From: Candidatus Moraniibacteriota bacterium
Lineage (GTDB): Bacteria > Patescibacteriota > Minisyncoccia > Moranbacterales > JAPLXC01
Direction of reading: 5' to 3'
Length of the DNA stretch: 64,000 bases
Assembly (NCBI GenBank): GCA_026396275.1
Contig: JAPLXC010000004.1
Coordinates: forward strand, 1,193-65,192
The stretch's first letter is position 1. Each line of letters begins with the position of its first letter. The notes below the pieces were generated by a model. It saw nothing but the letters and a program-made list of their open reading frames with translations. It did not search any database and was not told the origin of the DNA. A program made the position numbers and the translations under genes. This document shows, piece after piece, positions 3,434 to 42,262 of the stretch.

Positions 3434-4744
3434 ATGGTAAACCCAGTCATCACAATAGAAAATCTTCGCGTTATCTACAACCAGGGAAAATCCAACGAAA
3501 CCCGTTCTCTGGACGGAGTCAATCTTAAAATATTTCCCCGGGAGTACATTATCGTTCACGGTCCTTCTGGTTGTGGCAAATCAACCCTTCTTTATTCTAT
3601 CGCCGGATTGCAAGCACCGACCTATGGAGAAGTGACAATTGAAGACAAAAAACTTTCTCAAATGAAAGAGCGGGAAAAAGTGGAACTTCATCAGGTGGGA
3701 GTGGGAATGATTTTTCAGGCCTTCTATTTAATTTCCTCATTGAGTGTGATTGATAATGTTTGCCTCCCCCGGGTTTTTCGCGGTGAAGATCCGGAAAAAA
3801 GAAAAAGTGATGCCTTGGTGCTTCTGCGCCGGTTTGGAATTGCGGAGCAAGCCAATAAATTCCCCGGCCAGCTTTCCGGAGGGCAAAAACAGCGAGTAGC
3901 AATCGCTCGCGCTCTAATAAATAACCCCCAGATTATTTTGGCCGATGAGCCCGTGGGAAATTTAGATAGTGAGTCAGCGGAAAGTGTGCTCCAGATCCTA
4001 AAGGAACTAAATGAAGTCGACAAAAGAACGATAATTATGGTTACTCATAACTCTGAATATTTGCATTATGCTGATCGAGTGATTCACATGAAAGATGGGA
4101 TCATTGTCAGCTTGGAAGTAATTGAAGAAAAAAGACCTATCTCAGTGGTGAAAGAAGAAGTAGCCATTCAACCTGAAGAAATTTCCACTGATTTAAAACT
4201 ATTAATGCGAATGTTTAAAAATCTTTCTCCTCAACAAGCCGGGGTCTTGATTGTTCCTTTTAAGGCCAAACAGCTTCTTTCTCACGTGGTGTCAGAATTT
4301 ACTGAAGAACAGCTGACTTCAGCGGAAAATTATTTGAAAGAGTTTCTCTTTCGCAATATCGATATCAAGGAACTGGAAAAAAGCTTGGATCTTGATTATG
4401 ACGAAGGCGGAGCCGGATGGAATAAAAGAAGAGCCATTGCCTTTGCCCAGCGAGTAAGACAAATAATGAATCAGGTAGAGGCGCTCACAGCTAATCCGGA
4501 AACCGCTGCCAACACTTTTTCTGACTATCTTCTTGAACACTTTAATATTAAACTCAGCGATGATATCAAATTGCGGTTTCGCTCCTTTATTAAGTTAAGA
4601 ATTGACAATAAAATAGACCGTTTCAGCTTGCAGCAGCGTTTGGATACCCCCAAGATATTAGGAGGAATAGGACTGTATAAAACAACAGCTGAGAAAGTAG
4701 TGCGGGAGATAGAAGTGGTAATGTTGCTTAAATATTCAGCTTAA
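3434..4744 (+). CDS. ABC transporter ATP-binding protein (FtsE/MacB/LolD-like) with an unusual ~200-aa C-terminal extension
   Basis: Walker [10 protein letters not shown], signature [15 protein letters not shown] and Walker B ILADEP are present. The C-terminal half has no recognisable motif. Confidence 0.85.
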
Positions 4745-13973: not shown

Positions 13974-14209
13974 TGGGCACACCAAGATTCGAACTTGGGA
14001 CCTCGTCATTATCAGCTTGCCCCGCACTAAAATTCAATCTTTGTTTATACTTTTAGTGGGCGATGGAAGACTCGAACTTCCGACCTCGTCATTATCAGTG
14101 ACGCGCTCTAACCAACTGAGCTAATCGCCCAAATACTTCTTGAATTTTTAGTGCGGGGTGAACGCTCTATGCCTGCCGGCAGGCAGGTAACCAACTGAGC
14201 TATGTGCCC
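13974..14209 (-). tRNA. Interrupted tRNA-Ile(GAT)-like gene: 5' part (14163..14209) and 3' part (13974..14019) separated by ~139 nt that contain a complete tRNA-Ile. Possible intron-containing or split tRNA, or a pseudogene
   Basis: The 5' part reads GGGCACATAGCTCAGTTGGTTA, then a 20-nt insert holding a 16-nt perfect palindrome, then GAGCG. The 3' part reads CTGATAATGACGAGGTCCCAAGTTCGAATCTTGGTGTGCCCA. Acceptor (GGGCACA/TGTGCCC) and T-stem pair perfectly. The insert is flanked by CCCCGCACTAAAA / TTTTAGTGCGGGG. The 5' strand of the anticodon stem is not cleanly recoverable. Confidence 0.4.
14057..14130 (-). tRNA. tRNA-Ile (anticodon GAT), intact, nested inside the interrupted tRNA locus
   Basis: Manual fold: acceptor GGGCGAT/ATCGCCC, D-arm GCTC-AGTTGGTTA-GAGC, anticodon arm CGTCA-CTGATAA-TGACG, T-arm GGAAG-TTCGAGT-CTTCC, discriminator A. 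No encoded CCA. Confidence 0.85.
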
Positions 14210-14216
14210 TTATCCG

Positions 14217-14289
14217 TGGACCGTGCCGGAATCGAACCGGCTGCCTCCGCAGTGCAAATGCGGCGCTCTACCAGGTGAGCTAACGGCCC
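14217..14289 (-). tRNA. tRNA-Ala (anticodon TGC)
   Basis: Manual fold: GGGCCGT-TA-GCTC-ACCTGGT-AGAGC-G-CCGCA-TTTGCAC-TGCGG-AGGCA-GCCGG-TTCGATT-CCGGC-ACGGTCC-A. Confidence 0.85.
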
Positions 14290-16743: not shown

Positions 16744-16814
16744 AATTTGTTGACATTTATGATTTAATATTTTAGGATGTTATGAAGCTCTTTAAAATAA
16801 AAGGGAGGTAAAAA

Positions 16815-24878: not shown

Positions 24879-25037
24879 ATGGCAGGGCCATTATTGACAG
24901 AAAAGCAATTAAGGCAAAACAAAAAATGTGTCTGTAGGAGATGCAGTCATTGCCACTCAAAGATATGCAAAGGTTGTGAAAATCCTGAAGTAAGTAAGAA
25001 AAATTGCAACGATAATTGCAATGTATACTTAAAGTAA
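24879..25037 (+). CDS. 52-aa cysteine-rich small peptide (10 Cys; zinc-ribbon or metal-binding or RiPP-like)
   Basis: Strong SD aaaggaggtgaaaATG. Peptide MAGPLLTEKQLRQNKKCVCRRCSHCHSKICKGCENPEVSKKNCNDNCNVYLK. A terminator follows immediately. Not in the ORF track because it is under 60 aa. Confidence 0.35.
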   Translation: MAGPLLTEKQLRQNKKCVCRRCSHCHSKICKGCENPEVSKKNCNDNCNVYLK

Positions 25038-37065: not shown

Positions 37066-37428
37066 TCCGTGATTTGATTATAGCAGGTTTGGGGAAAAAG
37101 AAAAGAAGCGACGGTTTATATGTCGCTTCTAGCGGTTTTTAAACAAGGAATGCTTCACATTACCAAGGCGTCCTTCTTCGGGTTTTACTCTCAATTTTGC
37201 CAATATCAGTTGGTAATTTGTTCAGTTCCACCATTTTTTCGTAGAAGCTTTTTAAGCTTCTTCCGGAGGCCTTTAATGCTTCGTGCAAATAAAGAATTAT
37301 AACTGCCGGAAGAAGGATAATTAATCCTGCTAATACTTTTAAAACTTCTATCGGATGAAGGTACCACCTATAACTTTTCATTAGTTCCTCCTTTGCTGTG
37401 AACTTATTTAAGATGTTATAATAAATTT

Positions 37429-39010: not shown

Positions 39011-39011
39011 T

Positions 39012-39135
39012 TAATTTTTTAAATCCGAAATCCCAAGCTCAAATTTCAAATAAAATCCAAAATCCCAAATCTAAAATTTATTAATTTGGAATTGGAATTT
39101 CATTTGGCATTTGGATTTTGAACTTTGGATTTATC
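39012..39135. repeat. Long AT-rich imperfect palindrome in the nusB-rnc spacer
   Basis: aaatccaaaatcccaaatctaaaattt ... tttggaattggaatttcatttggcatttggatttt. Confidence 0.45.
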
Positions 39136-39141
39136 ATCTTT

Positions 39142-39825
39142 ATGATTGAAAATCTTTCCAAAAAGCTCGGAGTAAAGTTTAAAAATCAGGATTTGCTTCA
39201 GTCGGCGGTGACTCATCGCTCTTACCTTAATGAAAATCGTAGTTACGGAATAGAGCATAATGAACGGCTCGAGTTTCTGGGTGACGCGGTTTTGGAATTG
39301 ATTATCACTGAATACTTGTATAAAACTTACTCCAACCCTGAAGGAGAGCTAACTAGCTGGAGATCGGCTTTGGTCAATGGAGAAAATCTGGCAAAAATCG
39401 CCGGAGAGCTGGGAGTGGAAGAATTCCTACTTATGAGCAAAGGTGAAGCCAAGGATACGGGGAGAGCCCGTCAATATTTGCTGGCCAATGCTCTGGAAGC
39501 CATTATTGGAGCGATCTATCTTGACAGAGGATACCAGGAAGTCCAGCAATTTGTTTTGAAGTACATCGTGGCAAATTTAGACGAGGTATTGAAGAAAGGA
39601 CTTTATCTTGACGCGAAAAGCGTTTTTCAGGAAAAGTCCCAGGAGGAAGAAAAGATCACCCCTTCCTACCGGGTGCTAGAGGAATGGGGGCCCGACCATG
39701 ACAGGCATTTTGTGGTAGGCGTGTTTCTTGGTGAAGAGTTGATTGCCAAAGGGGAAGGAAAGTCAAAGCAGGAAGCCCAGCGGGAGGCGGCAAAAAAAGG
39801 ATTGGAAGTTAAAAGATGGATGTAG
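39142..39825 (+). CDS. rnc: Ribonuclease III
   Basis: ERLEFLGDAVLEL signature and a C-terminal dsRBD. Confidence 0.85.
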   Translation: MIENLSKKLGVKFKNQDLLQSAVTHRSYLNENRSYGIEHNERLEFLGDAVLELIITEYLYKTYSNPEGELTSWRSALVNGENLAKIAGELGVEEFLLMSKGEAKDTGRARQYLLANALEAIIGAIYLDRGYQEVQQFVLKYIVANLDEVLKKGLYLDAKSVFQEKSQEEEKITPSYRVLEEWGPDHDRHFVVGVFLGEELIAKGEGKSKQEAQREAAKKGLEVKRWM

Positions 39826-40032
39826 TAGATACTAAGATACTGGGATATTAGGATATTCATTGAAGTTTGTAGAAATTAAAGGGGAGAAGTTATCCACAAT
39901 TGATGAAAAATTATATTTTGCTATAATTAACCTAATAGAACAGGGAAGAACAAATTTTAAAAGGAGGACTTGAGGGGTGCATAGTCATGACGCATTTTTG
40001 TTTTTTAACAATAAAAAAGGAGAGAGAATATT

Positions 40033-40215
40033 ATGCCCGAAAATTGGTGGTATCTTATTTTTGAAACTTTTCTAAACCCTGTCAAGTTGATAACTGGTGT
40101 AATAGTTGTGGCGCTAACCTACGTTGTCCTATATTTCATATTCGGCCGCGATAAAAAATCCTGTTTATTGAAAGGAGGTGATTACGGTAAAAAAGCCAGA
40201 GGGAAAATGTTGTAA
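40033..40215 (+). CDS. 60-aa small membrane peptide with a basic C-terminal tail (toxin- or bacteriocin-like)
   Basis: SD aaaaaggagagag. TM VKLITGVIVVALTYVVLYFIF, then KKSCLLKGGDYGKKARGK. Confidence 0.35.
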   Translation: MPENWWYLIFETFLNPVKLITGVIVVALTYVVLYFIFGRDKKSCLLKGGDYGKKARGKML

Positions 40216-40524
40216 GATTCATCATGTTGTTTACTGGATTTATGTGCTACGCTCTAATCTTGCAAGATTAGAGCGTAATAAATTTTTCATTAAAAGGAGG
40301 TCACCATGATTTTTACAAGGATTTTCAAAAAAATTGCAACTAAAAATTCTTTGTAAAAGGAGGTGATCGGGCAACGGCTATCAGAAGTAGACGACCCAAT
40401 CTAGACGGATAACCGGTTTATAAAAAAGAGAGGTGAAATTTAATTTAGGCCGTTCGTGCCAAATTTGACTGGTTATTTCGCAACCAGGGGGCAGAGCGCT
40501 TCCTTGGAGATTTCAAAAGATAGA

Positions 40525-40549
40525 GGGCTGGATTTATCCAGCCCTTTTT
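40525..40549 (+). terminator. Rho-independent terminator closing the small-ORF locus
   Basis: gggctggat-tta-tccagccc followed by TTTTT. Confidence 0.5.
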
Positions 40550-40599
40550 AAATTGTTCGACAGCTTGAAAAATGGTACAATAGTTCCATACGAATAATA

Positions 40600-40670
40600 A
40601 TTCAGATGATATCCAAATTAAGAACGAATTCGGATAGTAATTCGGATATAATTCGGGTAGGAATTCGTAT
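40600..40670. repeat. Tandem AATTCGGRTA array (four copies) immediately upstream of the aminoacylase gene
   Basis: gaattcggatagtaattcggatataattcgggtaggaattcgtatc. Confidence 0.5.
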
Positions 40671-40672
40671 CT

Positions 40673-42262
40673 ATGTACGACATAATAATCAAAAACGGGA
40701 AGATTATTGACGGTACCGGCCAGCCGATGTTTGCGGCTGACATTGGAATTAAAGAGAGCAAAATAAAAGAAATAGGAGATCTCCATAATGAAAACGCGGA
40801 GGTTGTTATCAATGCTGAAAATCACTATGTGGCGCCGGGATTTATTGACGTCAATAACCACTCTGATACCTACTGGAGGATTTTTCTGGATCCGGAACTC
40901 CCGAGTTTGATTTATCAGGGAATCACCACCGTTGTTGGTGGAAACTGCGGATCGTCACTGGCTCCCTTAGTCAATCAGGAAATTATTCAAGCAATTCAAA
41001 AATGGGCGGATATCCGAAAGGTCAATCTTAACTGGCTGACCATGAAGGATTTCCTGGCGGAGATAGAGTGCCGAAAGCCCTCTGTTAATTTCGCCACTTT
41101 GGTGGGCCACAGCACGCTGCGCAGGGGACTGCTTGGCAATGAAGTCAGGAGTTTGAACACGGAGGAGTTGAAAATAATGAAAAGGATGCTGAAAAACGCT
41201 CTGAAAGAAGGAGCCCTTGGTCTTTCCACGGGCTTGGTTTATACTCATGCCAAATTGGCCTCCGAAAAAGAAATTGCTGAAATTGCCGAAGTCGTCAGCA
41301 GCTACGGGGGCGTGTATACGACTCACGTTCGGGGAGAATCCCAGGAGCTTTTGGAAGCAGTCGAAGAAGCAATCAAGACCGCTTCAGCCACGGGAGTGAA
41401 ATTGCAGATCTCCCACCTCAAGGCGATTGGCGAAAAGAATTGGCACTTGATGGATGAAGCGCTAAATCTTATTGAAACCGCCCGCACCAGCGGAATTGAC
41501 GTGAACTTTGATGTTTATCCTTACACCGTAACGGGTTCGGTTCTTTATATCCTTCTTCCTGACTGGGTAGCGGAAGGAGGAAAAAGGGCGATGATCCACC
41601 GGCTCAAAGACCCTAATATTCGCGTGCGGGTATTGCGGGAAATGGAAGAGGATAATTTTGATTATTCCAAAGTCGTCATTTCCATTTCTCCTTTGGATAA
41701 AACCCTCACGAGAAAAAGAGTTGTTGATATTGCCCGGGCGCAGGAAAAAACGGTTGAGGAAATAATTGTTGATCTTTTAATAGCCAGCGAGGGAAGAGTC
41801 ATAACGATGATGGACGTGTTGAGTGAGAAAAATGTGGCCAAAGCCATTCAGCATCCTTTTTCCATAATTTCCTCCAACGGCGCGGGGTACAGCATAGAGC
41901 ATAGCGAATCAGGAGAAGTGGTTCACCCCCGCAATTTCGGATCGTTCCCCCGGGTGCTGGCCCGCTATGTCCGGGAAAAAGGGATTTTAAGTTGGGAGGA
42001 AGCCATTCACAAGATGAGCAGCAAACCGGCGGAGAAATTCGGGATTAAAAAGCGTGGCGTACTTGAAAAAGGAAATGTCGCTGATGTTATTGTCTTTCAT
42101 CCGGAGGATATTCAGGATCTGGCTACTCCGGAAAATCCCTATCAATATTCACAAGGGATGCAGTGGGTCATTATAAATGGAGAAGTGGTAATGGAAAAAG
42201 GGAATTATTTGGGCAAAAGGGCGGGAGAAGTGATCAGAAGATCTTCGTCAAGGTGGTTTTGA
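40673..42262 (+). CDS. N-acyl-D-amino-acid deacylase family amidohydrolase
   Basis: MYDIIIKNGKIIDGTG ... APGFIDVNNHSD metal-binding start. 529 aa. Confidence 0.75.
   Translation: MYDIIIKNGKIIDGTGQPMFAADIGIKESKIKEIGDLHNENAEVVINAENHYVAPGFIDVNNHSDTYWRIFLDPELPSLIYQGITTVVGGNCGSSLAPLVNQEIIQAIQKWADIRKVNLNWLTMKDFLAEIECRKPSVNFATLVGHSTLRRGLLGNEVRSLNTEELKIMKRMLKNALKEGALGLSTGLVYTHAKLASEKEIAEIAEVVSSYGGVYTTHVRGESQELLEAVEEAIKTASATGVKLQISHLKAIGEKNWHLMDEALNLIETARTSGIDVNFDVYPYTVTGSVLYILLPDWVAEGGKRAMIHRLKDPNIRVRVLREMEEDNFDYSKVVISISPLDKTLTRKRVVDIARAQEKTVEEIIVDLLIASEGRVITMMDVLSEKNVAKAIQHPFSIISSNGAGYSIEHSESGEVVHPRNFGSFPRVLARYVREKGILSWEEAIHKMSSKPAEKFGIKKRGVLEKGNVADVIVFHPEDIQDLATPENPYQYSQGMQWVIINGEVVMEKGNYLGKRAGEVIRRSSSRWF

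Follow-up and report, generated by a model that had tools for sequence, protein, structure and literature searches.

What is a dense cluster of complements to the 3′ tail of 16S rRNA doing in a single intergenic region (IGR) of a genome whose genes are otherwise poor in Shine-Dalgarno (SD) sequences? The cluster lies in contig JAPLXC010000004.1 of Candidatus Moraniibacteriota bacterium, within the 64,000-nt stretch that was analyzed (the window), directly downstream of the RNase III gene rnc. A first-pass annotation made from the sequence had reported six purine motifs within about 500 nt of this region, and all six are present on the plus strand. On the best reading of the sequence, they belong to a self-contained unit of about 39890 to 40550 (~660 bases), here called the cassette, which runs from its own predicted promoter to its own predicted terminator. 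We interpret the cassette as a micro-protein operon whose expression is organized around pairing with the 16S 3′ tail at both initiating and non-initiating sites, a reading to which we assign a probability of about one half. The features of the cassette, in which ORF denotes an open reading frame, are as follows.

39890-39898, plus strand: DnaA box TTATCCACA, perfect consensus (0 mismatches), adjoining the -35 hexamer
39900-39927, plus strand: promoter predicted by consensus scan, TTGATG, 16-nt spacer, TGcTATAAT (extended -10), 10/12 matches, with TG
39959-39967, plus strand: SD1 AAAAGGAGG, in the 5′ leader ~25 nt past the inferred transcription start, no conserved start codon behind it
39972-40006, plus strand: predicted leader terminator-like hairpin (GAGGGG..GC / GC..CUUUUU), then the U tract UUUUUGUUUUUU
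40013-40026, plus strand: SD2 AAAAAAGGAGAGAG, ribosome-binding site of ORF1, 6 nt before its ATG, only the AAGGAG core conserved
40033-40215, plus strand: ORF1, 60 aa, one transmembrane segment (residues ~19-37) and a basic C-terminal tail
40171-40182, plus strand: SD3 AAAGGAGGTGAT, 12-nt complement of the 16S tail within the 3′ end of ORF1, holding the GUG of ORF2
40178-40309, plus strand: ORF2, 43-aa Cys/His-rich basic peptide VITVKKPEGKCCKIHHVVYWIYVLRSNLARLERN..., GUG start and TGA stop
40248-40277, plus strand: perfect 30-nt palindrome inside ORF2, encoding LRSNLARLER, then AUAAAUUUUU
40292-40301, plus strand: SD4 AAAAGGAGGT, ribosome-binding site of ORF3, 5 nt before its ATG
40306-40356, plus strand: ORF3, 16 codons (MIFTRIFKKIATKNSL), start overlapping the ORF2 stop (ATGA), stop abutting SD5
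40356-40368, plus strand: SD5 AAAGGAGGTGATC, 13-nt exact complement of the canonical 16S 3′ tail GAUCACCUCCUUU
40369-40523, plus strand: non-coding 3′ tail, including the SD6-like motif and a CUGGUU..AACCAG hairpin
about 40420-40434, plus strand: SD6-like motif AAAAAAGAGAGGTGA, in the non-coding 3′ tail
40499-40505, plus strand: anti-SD mimic CUUCCUU, without a second pyrimidine motif of this type in the cassette
40524-40550, plus strand: predicted intrinsic terminator AGGGCUGGAU-UU-AUCCAGCCCU, stem 40524-40545, then UUUUU

The motif AAAGGAGG occurs nine times on the two strands of the whole window, with 4.28 occurrences expected from shuffles, and four of the nine lie inside the 847-nt IGR, where the local expectation is ~0.03 (Poisson P of about 3e-8, or 5e-6 by the empirical plus-strand rate). 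A duplex scan of both strands with GAUCACCUCCUUU placed the sites at 40357 (-21.5 kcal/mol) and 40171 (-19.0 kcal/mol) first and second in the window. These two sites, SD5 and SD3, share the same 12-mer and are conserved across 12 to 13 nt as an exact complement of the canonical tail. SD2 and SD4 are conserved only as a 6- to 8-nt core positioned 5 to 6 nt 5′ of an ATG and are therefore ordinary ribosome-binding sites of ORF1 and ORF3. Each motif had been said to be followed by a tiny ORF, which is true of SD2 with ORF1 and of SD4 with ORF3 but not of SD1 and SD5, behind which no conserved ORF is found. As judged from the alignment, at least SD5, and probably SD1 too, is a conserved complement of the 16S tail that starts no conserved ORF.

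The cassette was recovered from six lineages, the window and five others (L161, L162, L163, L165, and L166), with rnc upstream of it in five of the six and differing genes downstream. These relatives were reached only via the ORF1 peptide and exact-protein contig look-ups. The RNase III proteins share 71 to 78% identity across lineages, and the third codon positions of rnc are 39 to 50% identical, which is essentially saturated. Because the cassette nevertheless aligns over ~750 nt at 58 to 76% identity, the comparison indicates that it is under purifying selection as a unit. The best-conserved blocks in the alignment are the promoter with the DnaA box, the leader U tract, SD3, SD5, and the terminator. 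Searches of 160 rnc-centered loci from GTDB genomes and JGI metagenomes by blastn, nhmmer, and a profile hidden Markov model (HMM) retrieved no homologue of the IGR, and the RNase III and amidohydrolase proteins of the window had no record in exact look-ups. In Rfam, the window matched only two tRNAs at gathering thresholds, and the locus matched at an E value of ≤10 only by chance, far below the cutoffs, with no matches for the homologous loci. Across these collections, the element appears restricted to a small clade.

The genomic background of these motifs is poor in SD sequences. GGAG, GAGG, or AGGA is found upstream of 4 of the 52 long genes in the window, which is the background rate, and the genes of the relatives are likewise SD-poor, including those for ribosomal proteins S16, L10, and L12. 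A strong SD about 5 nt from an ATG precedes a dUTPase-dCMP deaminase fusion gene, a thymidylate-synthase-like gene, and several orphan small ORFs. Since this arrangement recurs on a handful of accessory or small genes, SD recognition seems to be functional in this organism and reserved for a minority of genes, which suggests two classes of translation initiation within one genome. Examples of such minority sites are located at 16804, 20907, 21115, 24868, 27615, 27917, 37392 (minus strand), and 49581 (minus strand). The unannotated small ORFs among them encode 45 to 108 aa; the one at 24879 specifies a Cys-rich peptide of 52 aa, and those at 37381 and 49570, both on the minus strand, specify membrane peptides.

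Whether the motifs could be read by the ribosome depends on the anti-SD of the 16S rRNA. Only 48% of Parcubacteria have a detectable anti-SD motif, and where it has been lost, uL1 has mostly been lost as well (PMC9297842). This genome encodes uL1, and by this indirect argument it has probably retained the anti-SD.

By its substitution pattern, ORF1 is truly coding. The 60-aa frame at 40033 is as the first-pass annotation described it, with a hydropathy peak of 2.57, and it has homologues (P0001 to P0005) in the five other lineages. A word-index search gave no match, an exhaustive HMMER search found four of the homologues, and a profile search found the fifth. A synonymous excess is seen only in its own frame (synonymous-to-nonsynonymous ratio of 12:14 between the window and L163 versus 6:16 and 2:20 in the other two), and conservation is lowest at its third codon positions.

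ORF2 had been overlooked in the first pass. Its peptide begins VIKIKKPEGKCCKIHHVVCWIYILRSNLARLENN... in L161 and VIKIKRTEGKCCKIHHVVHWLFSLRSQLARLEKM... in L166, and the synonymous-to-nonsynonymous ratios in its frame are 9:5 between the window and L161 (versus 1:12 and 3:12 in the other frames), 13:11 between the window and L166 (versus 2:21 and 3:21), and 11:9 in a third comparison (about 2:20 out of frame). This pattern marks ORF2 as a real coding gene. Two micro-proteins are thus real, although the set differs from the one first listed. Since ORF1 and ORF2 are under purifying selection at the protein level, the transcript would at least also be an mRNA. Searches of Pfam, NCBIfam, PHROGs, and PADLOC with both ORFs gave only sub-threshold transmembrane-helix noise, and no paralogue of either was found within the window. 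A profile of ORF2 compared with 5.8 billion proteins matched only one, the L163 protein described below.

We considered whether ORF2 could be the small basic ribosomal protein bS21, which is often absent in Parcubacteria of the candidate phyla radiation (CPR) (PMC9297842). Six ORF2 variants had no match to the bS21 family in Pfam (PF01165) at an E value of ≤10, a profile search of the PDB yielded no bS21, hhalign against Escherichia coli bS21 gave a probability of 0.1, and BLASTP gave no alignment; this identification was rejected. A bS21 gene was also missing from all of the sequences gathered for comparison, although this negative is uninformative.

The start of ORF2 lies within SD3. GUG 40178, inside AAAGGAGGUGAU, is the only canonical in-frame start of ORF2 in the window and in L166; five lineages offer AUA or AUU, spaced by 8 nt, as an alternative start, and the window has GUA at that position. 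The nucleotides of SD3 are kept in 6/6 lineages. They are read by ORF1 as KGGD in most lineages and as KEVI in L163, and because they are unchanged although L163 reads another frame, the constraint on SD3 appears to act at the nucleotide level. The ORF1 stop is located 5 to 35 nt 3′ of the ORF2 GUG, depending on the lineage, and the overlap takes the form GUGAUUAA in L161 and L162. A programmed frameshift of the prfB or dnaX type between ORF1 and ORF2 was rejected, as the overlap holds no conserved slippery site. In the window, a TGA limits the overlap to the SD3 motif. The candidate shifty site AAA-G is GAA-G in L166 and L165, and neither a zero-frame CUU-UGA nor A-AAA-AAG is found.

In L163, the two frames are fused into a 95-aa protein (P0003), which suggests that ORF1 and ORF2 act together. 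The ORF2 sequences of L163 and L162 are of a divergent type. The fusion arises from a difference of one base in an A run (CGCAAAAAAAATCC at about 3270 to 3285 of L163 compared with CGCGATAAAAAATCC at 40146 to 40160 of the window), which is present in both the metagenome-assembled genome at NCBI and a Logan contig. Possible explanations are a genuine fusion, an assembly error in the homopolymer, and a site prone to slippage.

ORF2 also contains the perfect hairpin noted earlier, whose coordinates are 40248 to 40277 rather than 40236 to 40268 and which therefore runs within the overlooked gene. Its 15-nt arms have no spacer, which corresponds to a stem of ~13 bp with a 4-nt loop. The predicted fold reaches -18.8 kcal/mol in the window and -6.6 kcal/mol in L161 and is absent in L166 and L165, while the encoded peptide is conserved. 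The hairpin was thus rejected as a conserved RNA element. Only the window has a strong fold, the conservation of the region is that of a protein, and the hairpin is therefore lineage specific.

ORF3 differs from the two coding frames. The 16-aa ORF at 40306 to 40356 is present as first described, and a frame of 16 codons with a strong SD occurs in all five lineages that cover the site (the window, L161, L163, L166, and L165). Its synonymous-to-nonsynonymous ratios of 0:6, 2:5, and 1:10 carry no coding signature, and a look for the proposed peptides in relatives, which succeeded for ORF1 in all five other lineages, showed that the peptide sequence of ORF3 is not conserved. Because its length, position, and SD are conserved and its peptide sequence is not, ORF3 appears to be a regulatory upstream ORF (uORF) of the leader type, in which translation matters and the peptide does not. 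The earlier suggestion of leader peptides therefore fits this ORF but not the 25/26-aa one, which is not real.

The stop codon of ORF3 abuts SD5, whose 12-nt core AAGGAGGTGATC is invariant in 5/5 lineages covering the site, the 13th base being G in L161. No start codon stands at SD spacing behind it. The frames opened by its own GUG span 13, 23, 10, 26, and 4 codons in the five lineages, the L165 frame being closed by a stop at codon 5, and no conserved frame, length, sequence, or coding signature follows SD5. From these comparisons, SD5 seems to have no coding explanation at all.

SD5 is also where a simpler account has to be weighed, namely that the cassette is a plain operon of tiny genes without any special ribosome interaction, in which the SD motifs are or were ordinary sites, the GUG of SD5 starts a short and fast-evolving fourth ORF, and SD1 is merely the A/G-rich flank of a terminator. 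SD2 and SD4 do stand at the canonical 5 to 6 nt from an ATG, SD3 shares its 12-mer with SD5 and is demonstrably followed by a coding ORF whose start is the GUG of SD3, some open frame of 4 to 26 codons follows the SD5 GUG in every lineage, and other small orphan ORFs in the window have strong SDs. Yet the frame behind SD5 lacks a conserved length, sequence, and coding signature and shrinks to 4 codons in L165, whereas 12 positions of SD5 are invariant, with only the 13th differing and only in L161, across lineages whose synonymous sites are saturated. In addition, an SD whose GGAG directly adjoins the GUG cannot bring that GUG into the P site, and a partner of SD5 in cis recurs in differing forms, as described next. 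We consider a plain operon rather unlikely and continue with the reading of the cassette as an operon organized around 16S-tail pairing.

The partners of SD5 are found on both sides of it. In the window and L161, a predicted hairpin of about -20 kcal/mol, in which GGUCACC after SD4 pairs with GGUGAUC of SD5, encloses ORF3. The 3′ tail, in which no frame has a synonymous excess or periodicity, falls into two types, one in the window, L161, and L163 and the other in L166 and L165. A single pyrimidine anti-SD mimic, GCGCUUCCUUGG, is located ~20 nt before the terminator in the window and L163, and that of the window is predicted to pair best with SD5 (-16.7 kcal/mol). L161 contains CUUCCCU, and its SD5 pairs in the predicted fold with a separate stretch, GAUCAUCUUC, that agrees with the 16S tail at 8/10 positions. 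In L166 and L165, CCUC stands directly 3′ of SD5 instead of a distal mimic. Because SD5 has a partner in cis in every lineage, the folding models suggest that access to it is switched, plausibly by translation of ORF3. Besides the terminator, the consensus structure of the tail comprises short local helices and a tentative long-range helix between SD and anti-SD. The terminator, placed earlier at 40525 to 40549, is indeed predicted there, with its stem at 40524 to 40545 followed by TTTTT. It was found as an inverted repeat (a terminator-pattern scan lists this hairpin only on the minus strand) and is conserved with compensatory changes in all five lineages.

The upstream end of the cassette is conserved as well. 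The block GTTATCCACA contains a perfect DnaA box immediately 5′ of the promoter; the box is kept in L161, L166, and L165 and is degenerate in L163. A promoter of the pattern TTGAnn, 16- to 17-nt spacer, (TG)nTATAAT is predicted at the same alignment position in L161, L163, and L166 (10 to 11 of 12 matches) and also in L165 and L162. From this layout, the promoter may be controlled by DnaA, and the box hints at replication-linked control of the micro-proteins. An origin of replication was rejected as an explanation, as there is a single perfect box and no switch in GC skew, which rises monotonically when cumulated; near-matches to the DnaA box number 24 in the window, evenly spread, with 15 expected.

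In the leader, the SD-like AAAGGAGG of SD1 ends 3 to 4 nt before the terminator-like hairpin, the 3′ side of which runs into UUUUUGUUnUUU. The RNAalifold consensus keeps nine pairs of this hairpin in six sequences, with one-sided and compensatory changes, and in L161 and L163 it is also picked up by the terminator scan. The frames downstream of SD1 vary. They share the frame of ORF1 in L161 and L166 but not in the window, and stops break them in L165 and L162. Leader ORFs of 25 and 32 aa were rejected as genes, since neither frame is conserved and both run across the leader hairpin and the U tract. The 26-aa ORF reported earlier corresponds to the shorter of them, as ATG 39987 gives 25 aa (MTHFCFLTIKKEREYYARKLVVSYF) and not the sequence then quoted.

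This leader and SD5 together raise the possibility of a regulatory or decoy RNA that acts on ribosomes, in which a terminated leader of ~75 nt with SD1 as its seed, a tail headed by SD5, or both would bind free 30S subunits and sense or titrate the availability of the anti-SD, with the micro-ORFs being secondary. The two top-ranked anti-SD complements of the window belong to this locus, SD5 is apparently non-initiating and nearly invariant, and the leader is laid out like a small RNA, with a single-stranded 5′ part followed by an intrinsic terminator. Since bulk translation in this lineage is SD independent, an RNA directed at the anti-SD would be selective, and there is precedent for an anti-SD used only for special regulation (PMC13000453). 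The purifying selection on the ORF1 and ORF2 proteins argues against this possibility, as does the number of sites, since one copy per genome region with two to five sites is few for a stoichiometric sponge of ribosomes. The SD motifs are also not predicted to be especially unpaired. A decoy RNA is accordingly, in our view, an unlikely explanation.

The repetition of the 12-mer allows a further explanation, in which the AAAGGAGGTGAT motifs bind a protein, either in RNA, as CsrA sites do, or in DNA, as operators or iterons. Three near-identical 12-mers have extended flanking similarity (repeat families D1 and D2), and their GGA cores resemble CsrA sites, but the conserved stretch is the 16S-tail complement over 12 to 13 nt, reaching far beyond the GGA core, and is strictly strand specific. 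The spacings of 122 and 63 nt are not conserved (SD4 to SD5 is ~10 nt shorter in L163), and no regulator gene is adjacent. We regard protein-binding repeats as highly improbable. A sponge RNA of the CsrB/RsmZ type was likewise rejected, as the motifs are kept as a 12- to 13-nt complement of the 16S tail and not as a loop GGA, and two proteins are encoded.

A hydrophobic peptide in a transcript with an anti-SD element also recalls type I toxin-antitoxin (TA) loci, in which case ORF1 would be a small membrane toxin held in check by an RNA antitoxin and by folding of the mRNA, through pairing of SD and anti-SD, a fold-back element at the 3′ end, and a coupled leader ORF. ORF1 has the appropriate size (~50 to 60 aa), a single transmembrane helix, and a charged tail; the frames overlap as in mok/hok, the 3′ untranslated region (UTR) is long and structured with an anti-SD element, and in L162 the gene upstream of the cassette encodes a reverse transcriptase instead of RNase III. 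Simple consensus scans of four lineages, however, revealed no positionally conserved minus-strand promoter, and there was no PADLOC, Pfam, or NCBIfam match. The cassette is single copy and syntenic after rnc across deep divergence, unlike typical mobile type I loci, and the conservation of ORF2 as a protein, together with its fusion to ORF1 in L163, suggests a two-part protein and not a mok-like frame. A type I TA locus is thus quite improbable. The broader suggestion of toxins or bacteriocins found no backing in a family match, an array of paralogous peptides, or genes for processing, export, or immunity.

The features described above can be assembled into a mechanism for the preferred reading, an operon organized around 16S-tail pairing. 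Transcription would start at the possibly DnaA-controlled promoter, and the leader terminator would then have to be overcome. SD1 and SD5 may serve as non-initiating binding sites for the 30S subunit. A 30S subunit on SD1, beside the 5′ arm of the terminator, could protect the 5′ end, disfavor the leader hairpin, or both. ORF1, ORF2, and ORF3 would be translated as a coupled chain, as each next site is embedded in the preceding ORF. Because a GUG at zero spacing cannot be placed in the P site by SD3 in the usual way, SD3 would instead tether ribosomes that end ORF1 and thereby favor their restart on ORF2. Translation of ORF3 would open the local hairpin and expose SD5, on which a 30S subunit would be held; otherwise, SD5 would refold with the mimic in the tail. 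The SD-like sites would stabilize or attenuate the transcript. Of the three options first offered for the locus (micro-proteins, leader peptides, and a ribosome-titrating RNA), each captures a part, the interaction of the RNA with ribosomes being only plausible.

Several points weigh against this mechanism. The 16S rRNA gene lies outside the 64-kb window, so pairing with the tail is assumed from its canonical sequence, and 52% of Parcubacteria have no detectable anti-SD motif (PMC9297842). The SD motifs are not unusually accessible in partition-function folding of the whole transcript. SD1 is the least conserved of the motifs, and the conservation of SD3 can partly be explained by dual coding, as it encodes KGGD of ORF1 and holds the start of ORF2. 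The selection of a GUG at zero spacing from GGAG is unexplained. The DnaA box is absent in L163, the alignment of the tail comprises only ~4 independent lineages of two types with a covariation term of +1.68 (weak support), and the promoter, the terminators, and all of the RNA structures are predictions.

In the window, the immediate surroundings of the cassette are as follows.

39142-39825: rnc (RNase III gene), directly 5′ of the IGR
39826-40672: IGR holding the cassette, 847 nt
40673-42262: amidohydrolase gene, 3′ of the IGR, then murD

Further 5′ of rnc are the genes for RNase HII, bL32, and nusB. The nearest relatives of the window's RNase III are from Candidatus Moranbacteria or Parcubacteria metagenome assemblies, with at most 77% amino acid identity. 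The gene orders in the other lineages are as follows.

L161: nusB, rnc, element, amidohydrolase gene
L163 (and L164): RNase HII gene, nusB, rnc, element, amidohydrolase gene, murD
L166 (and L167): nusB, rnc, element, SMC gene
L165: end of rnc, then element
L162: gene for a group-II-intron-like reverse transcriptase, then element

The reverse transcriptase that replaces rnc in L162 (241 to 1143) is 300 aa long and matches RVT_1 and TIGR04416 (148 bits, below the cutoff). Its stop codon is 18 nt from the -10 element of the cassette, and the contig of 1.6 kb is too short to distinguish mobility from insertion.

The spacer between nusB and rnc (39011 to 39141 in the window) folds into a single long imperfect hairpin. 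Such a hairpin is predicted in four lineages (the window, L161 at 1264 to 1354, L163 at 2154 to 2287, and L166 at 3991 to 4130), with energies of -21 to -27 kcal/mol and z-scores of -1.7 to -5.3. The spacers are unalignable low-complexity repeats of the AAATCCnAAA / TTTGGATTT type, in which the structure is kept and the sequence is not. By analogy with the E. coli rnc leader, the hairpin is a candidate double-stranded RNA substrate for autoregulation by RNase III. On the other side of the cassette, four tandem units of 11 to 12 nt (TAATTCGGATA and variants) occupy 40626 to 40670 of the window, leaving 2 nt to the amidohydrolase ATG at 40673. They are located 3′ of a good extended -10 promoter (TGGTACAAT, near 40575 to 40583), are absent from L161 and L163, and could be an operator or a 5′-UTR element. 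Elsewhere in the window, a tRNA-Ala(UGC) and tRNA-Ile(GAU) pair at 14056 to 14289 (minus strand) stands alone in an 834-nt intergenic region. The pair is classic content of the 16S-23S spacer, and no rRNA gene occurs anywhere in the 64 kb, as would fit the unlinked or rearranged rRNA operons that have been described in CPR bacteria.

Translation in the CPR (Patescibacteria) is poorly understood, and here the strongest and best-conserved 16S-tail complements of an SD-poor Parcubacteria lineage are concentrated in one small cassette. If the pairing is real, the cassette offers a handle on the remaining use of the anti-SD in such organisms and on how the non-initiating tethering of ribosomes, for coupling, stabilization, or attenuation, is built. 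If it is not, the cassette is still a well-defined, lineage-restricted small-protein operon. In either case, two conserved micro-protein families, mostly missed by gene callers, have been added.

The closest likeness to SD1 is found in Bacillus. The hbs mRNA and the STAB-SD of cryIIIA carry, in an untranslated leader, an SD-like site that is fully complementary to the 16S 3′ end and is followed by no start codon, and sites of this type are thought to bind the 30S subunit and block 5′-to-3′ decay (PMC5737220). SD1 and, conceptually, SD5 resemble them in being untranslated complements of the 16S tail without a conserved start codon or ORF. Unlike STAB-SD, the cassette places several sites on a single short transcript, including an internal one that follows a uORF, and its host is otherwise SD-less. 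The likeness covers sequence anatomy, and protection of the 5′ end by SD1 would follow by analogy.

In Bacteroidia, the ribosomes are SD blind, and rpsU, which encodes bS21, bears a strong SD and is autoregulated through the SD and anti-SD (PMC7797042, PMC13000453). As in that circuit, bulk genes here lack an SD, and the gene for a small basic protein carries an exceptional and strongly conserved one, which suggests that special regulation is what the anti-SD is retained for. Unlike rpsU, ORF2 has no detectable similarity to bS21, and the cassette has multiple SDs and a membrane peptide. This parallel permits a more speculative proposal, which we consider doubtful, that SD5 and SD1 are the functional core of an RNA device for sensing or titrating free anti-SD on 30S subunits in a lineage that has otherwise given up SD-led initiation, with the micro-proteins as its output and ORF2 possibly serving as a ribosome-platform factor in place of bS21. 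If true, Parcubacteria would have their own reason to keep an anti-SD without SD genes, parallel to and independent of the rpsU circuit of Bacteroidia.

Termination followed by reinitiation in overlapping bacterial genes is reportedly described by the scanning model of Adhin and van Duin. The cassette resembles such translational coupling in that downstream sites lie in the ends of preceding ORFs (SD3 and the ORF2 start in ORF1, SD4 and the ATGA of ORF3 in ORF2, and SD5 at the end of ORF3). Unlike in usual coupling, the restart codon is embedded in the SD at zero spacing, the distance from stop to GUG varies, and the last site has no conserved ORF.

Type I toxin mRNAs such as those of hok/sok have fold-back elements. 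In Staphylococcus aureus icaR, an anti-SD in the 3′ UTR pairs with the SD region, and RNase III cuts the duplex (PMC3868564). Like these, the cassette has a single pyrimidine-rich mimic near its terminator, for which pairing with an SD further 5′ in the transcript is predicted, and the neighboring gene encodes RNase III. Unlike in icaR, the preferred partner is the apparently non-initiating SD5 and not the ribosome-binding site of a main ORF, and in L166 and L165 an adjacent CCUC takes the place of the mimic; an antisense RNA was not found.

The cassette can also be set beside the psm-alpha locus of S. aureus, an unannotated micro-peptide operon with one strong SD per tiny ORF. Both have several very short ORFs with strong SDs within ~400 nt that were missed by gene callers. 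Unlike in psm-alpha, the ORFs of the cassette are not paralogues but comprise a transmembrane peptide, a basic Cys/His peptide, and an unconstrained ORF, and nothing points to secretion or cytolysis. The element thus matches no described family, and it is best described as a new arrangement, in an unusual host background, of known principles: a non-initiating stabilizer SD, translational coupling, a uORF-controlled structure, and anti-SD pairing from the 3′ UTR.

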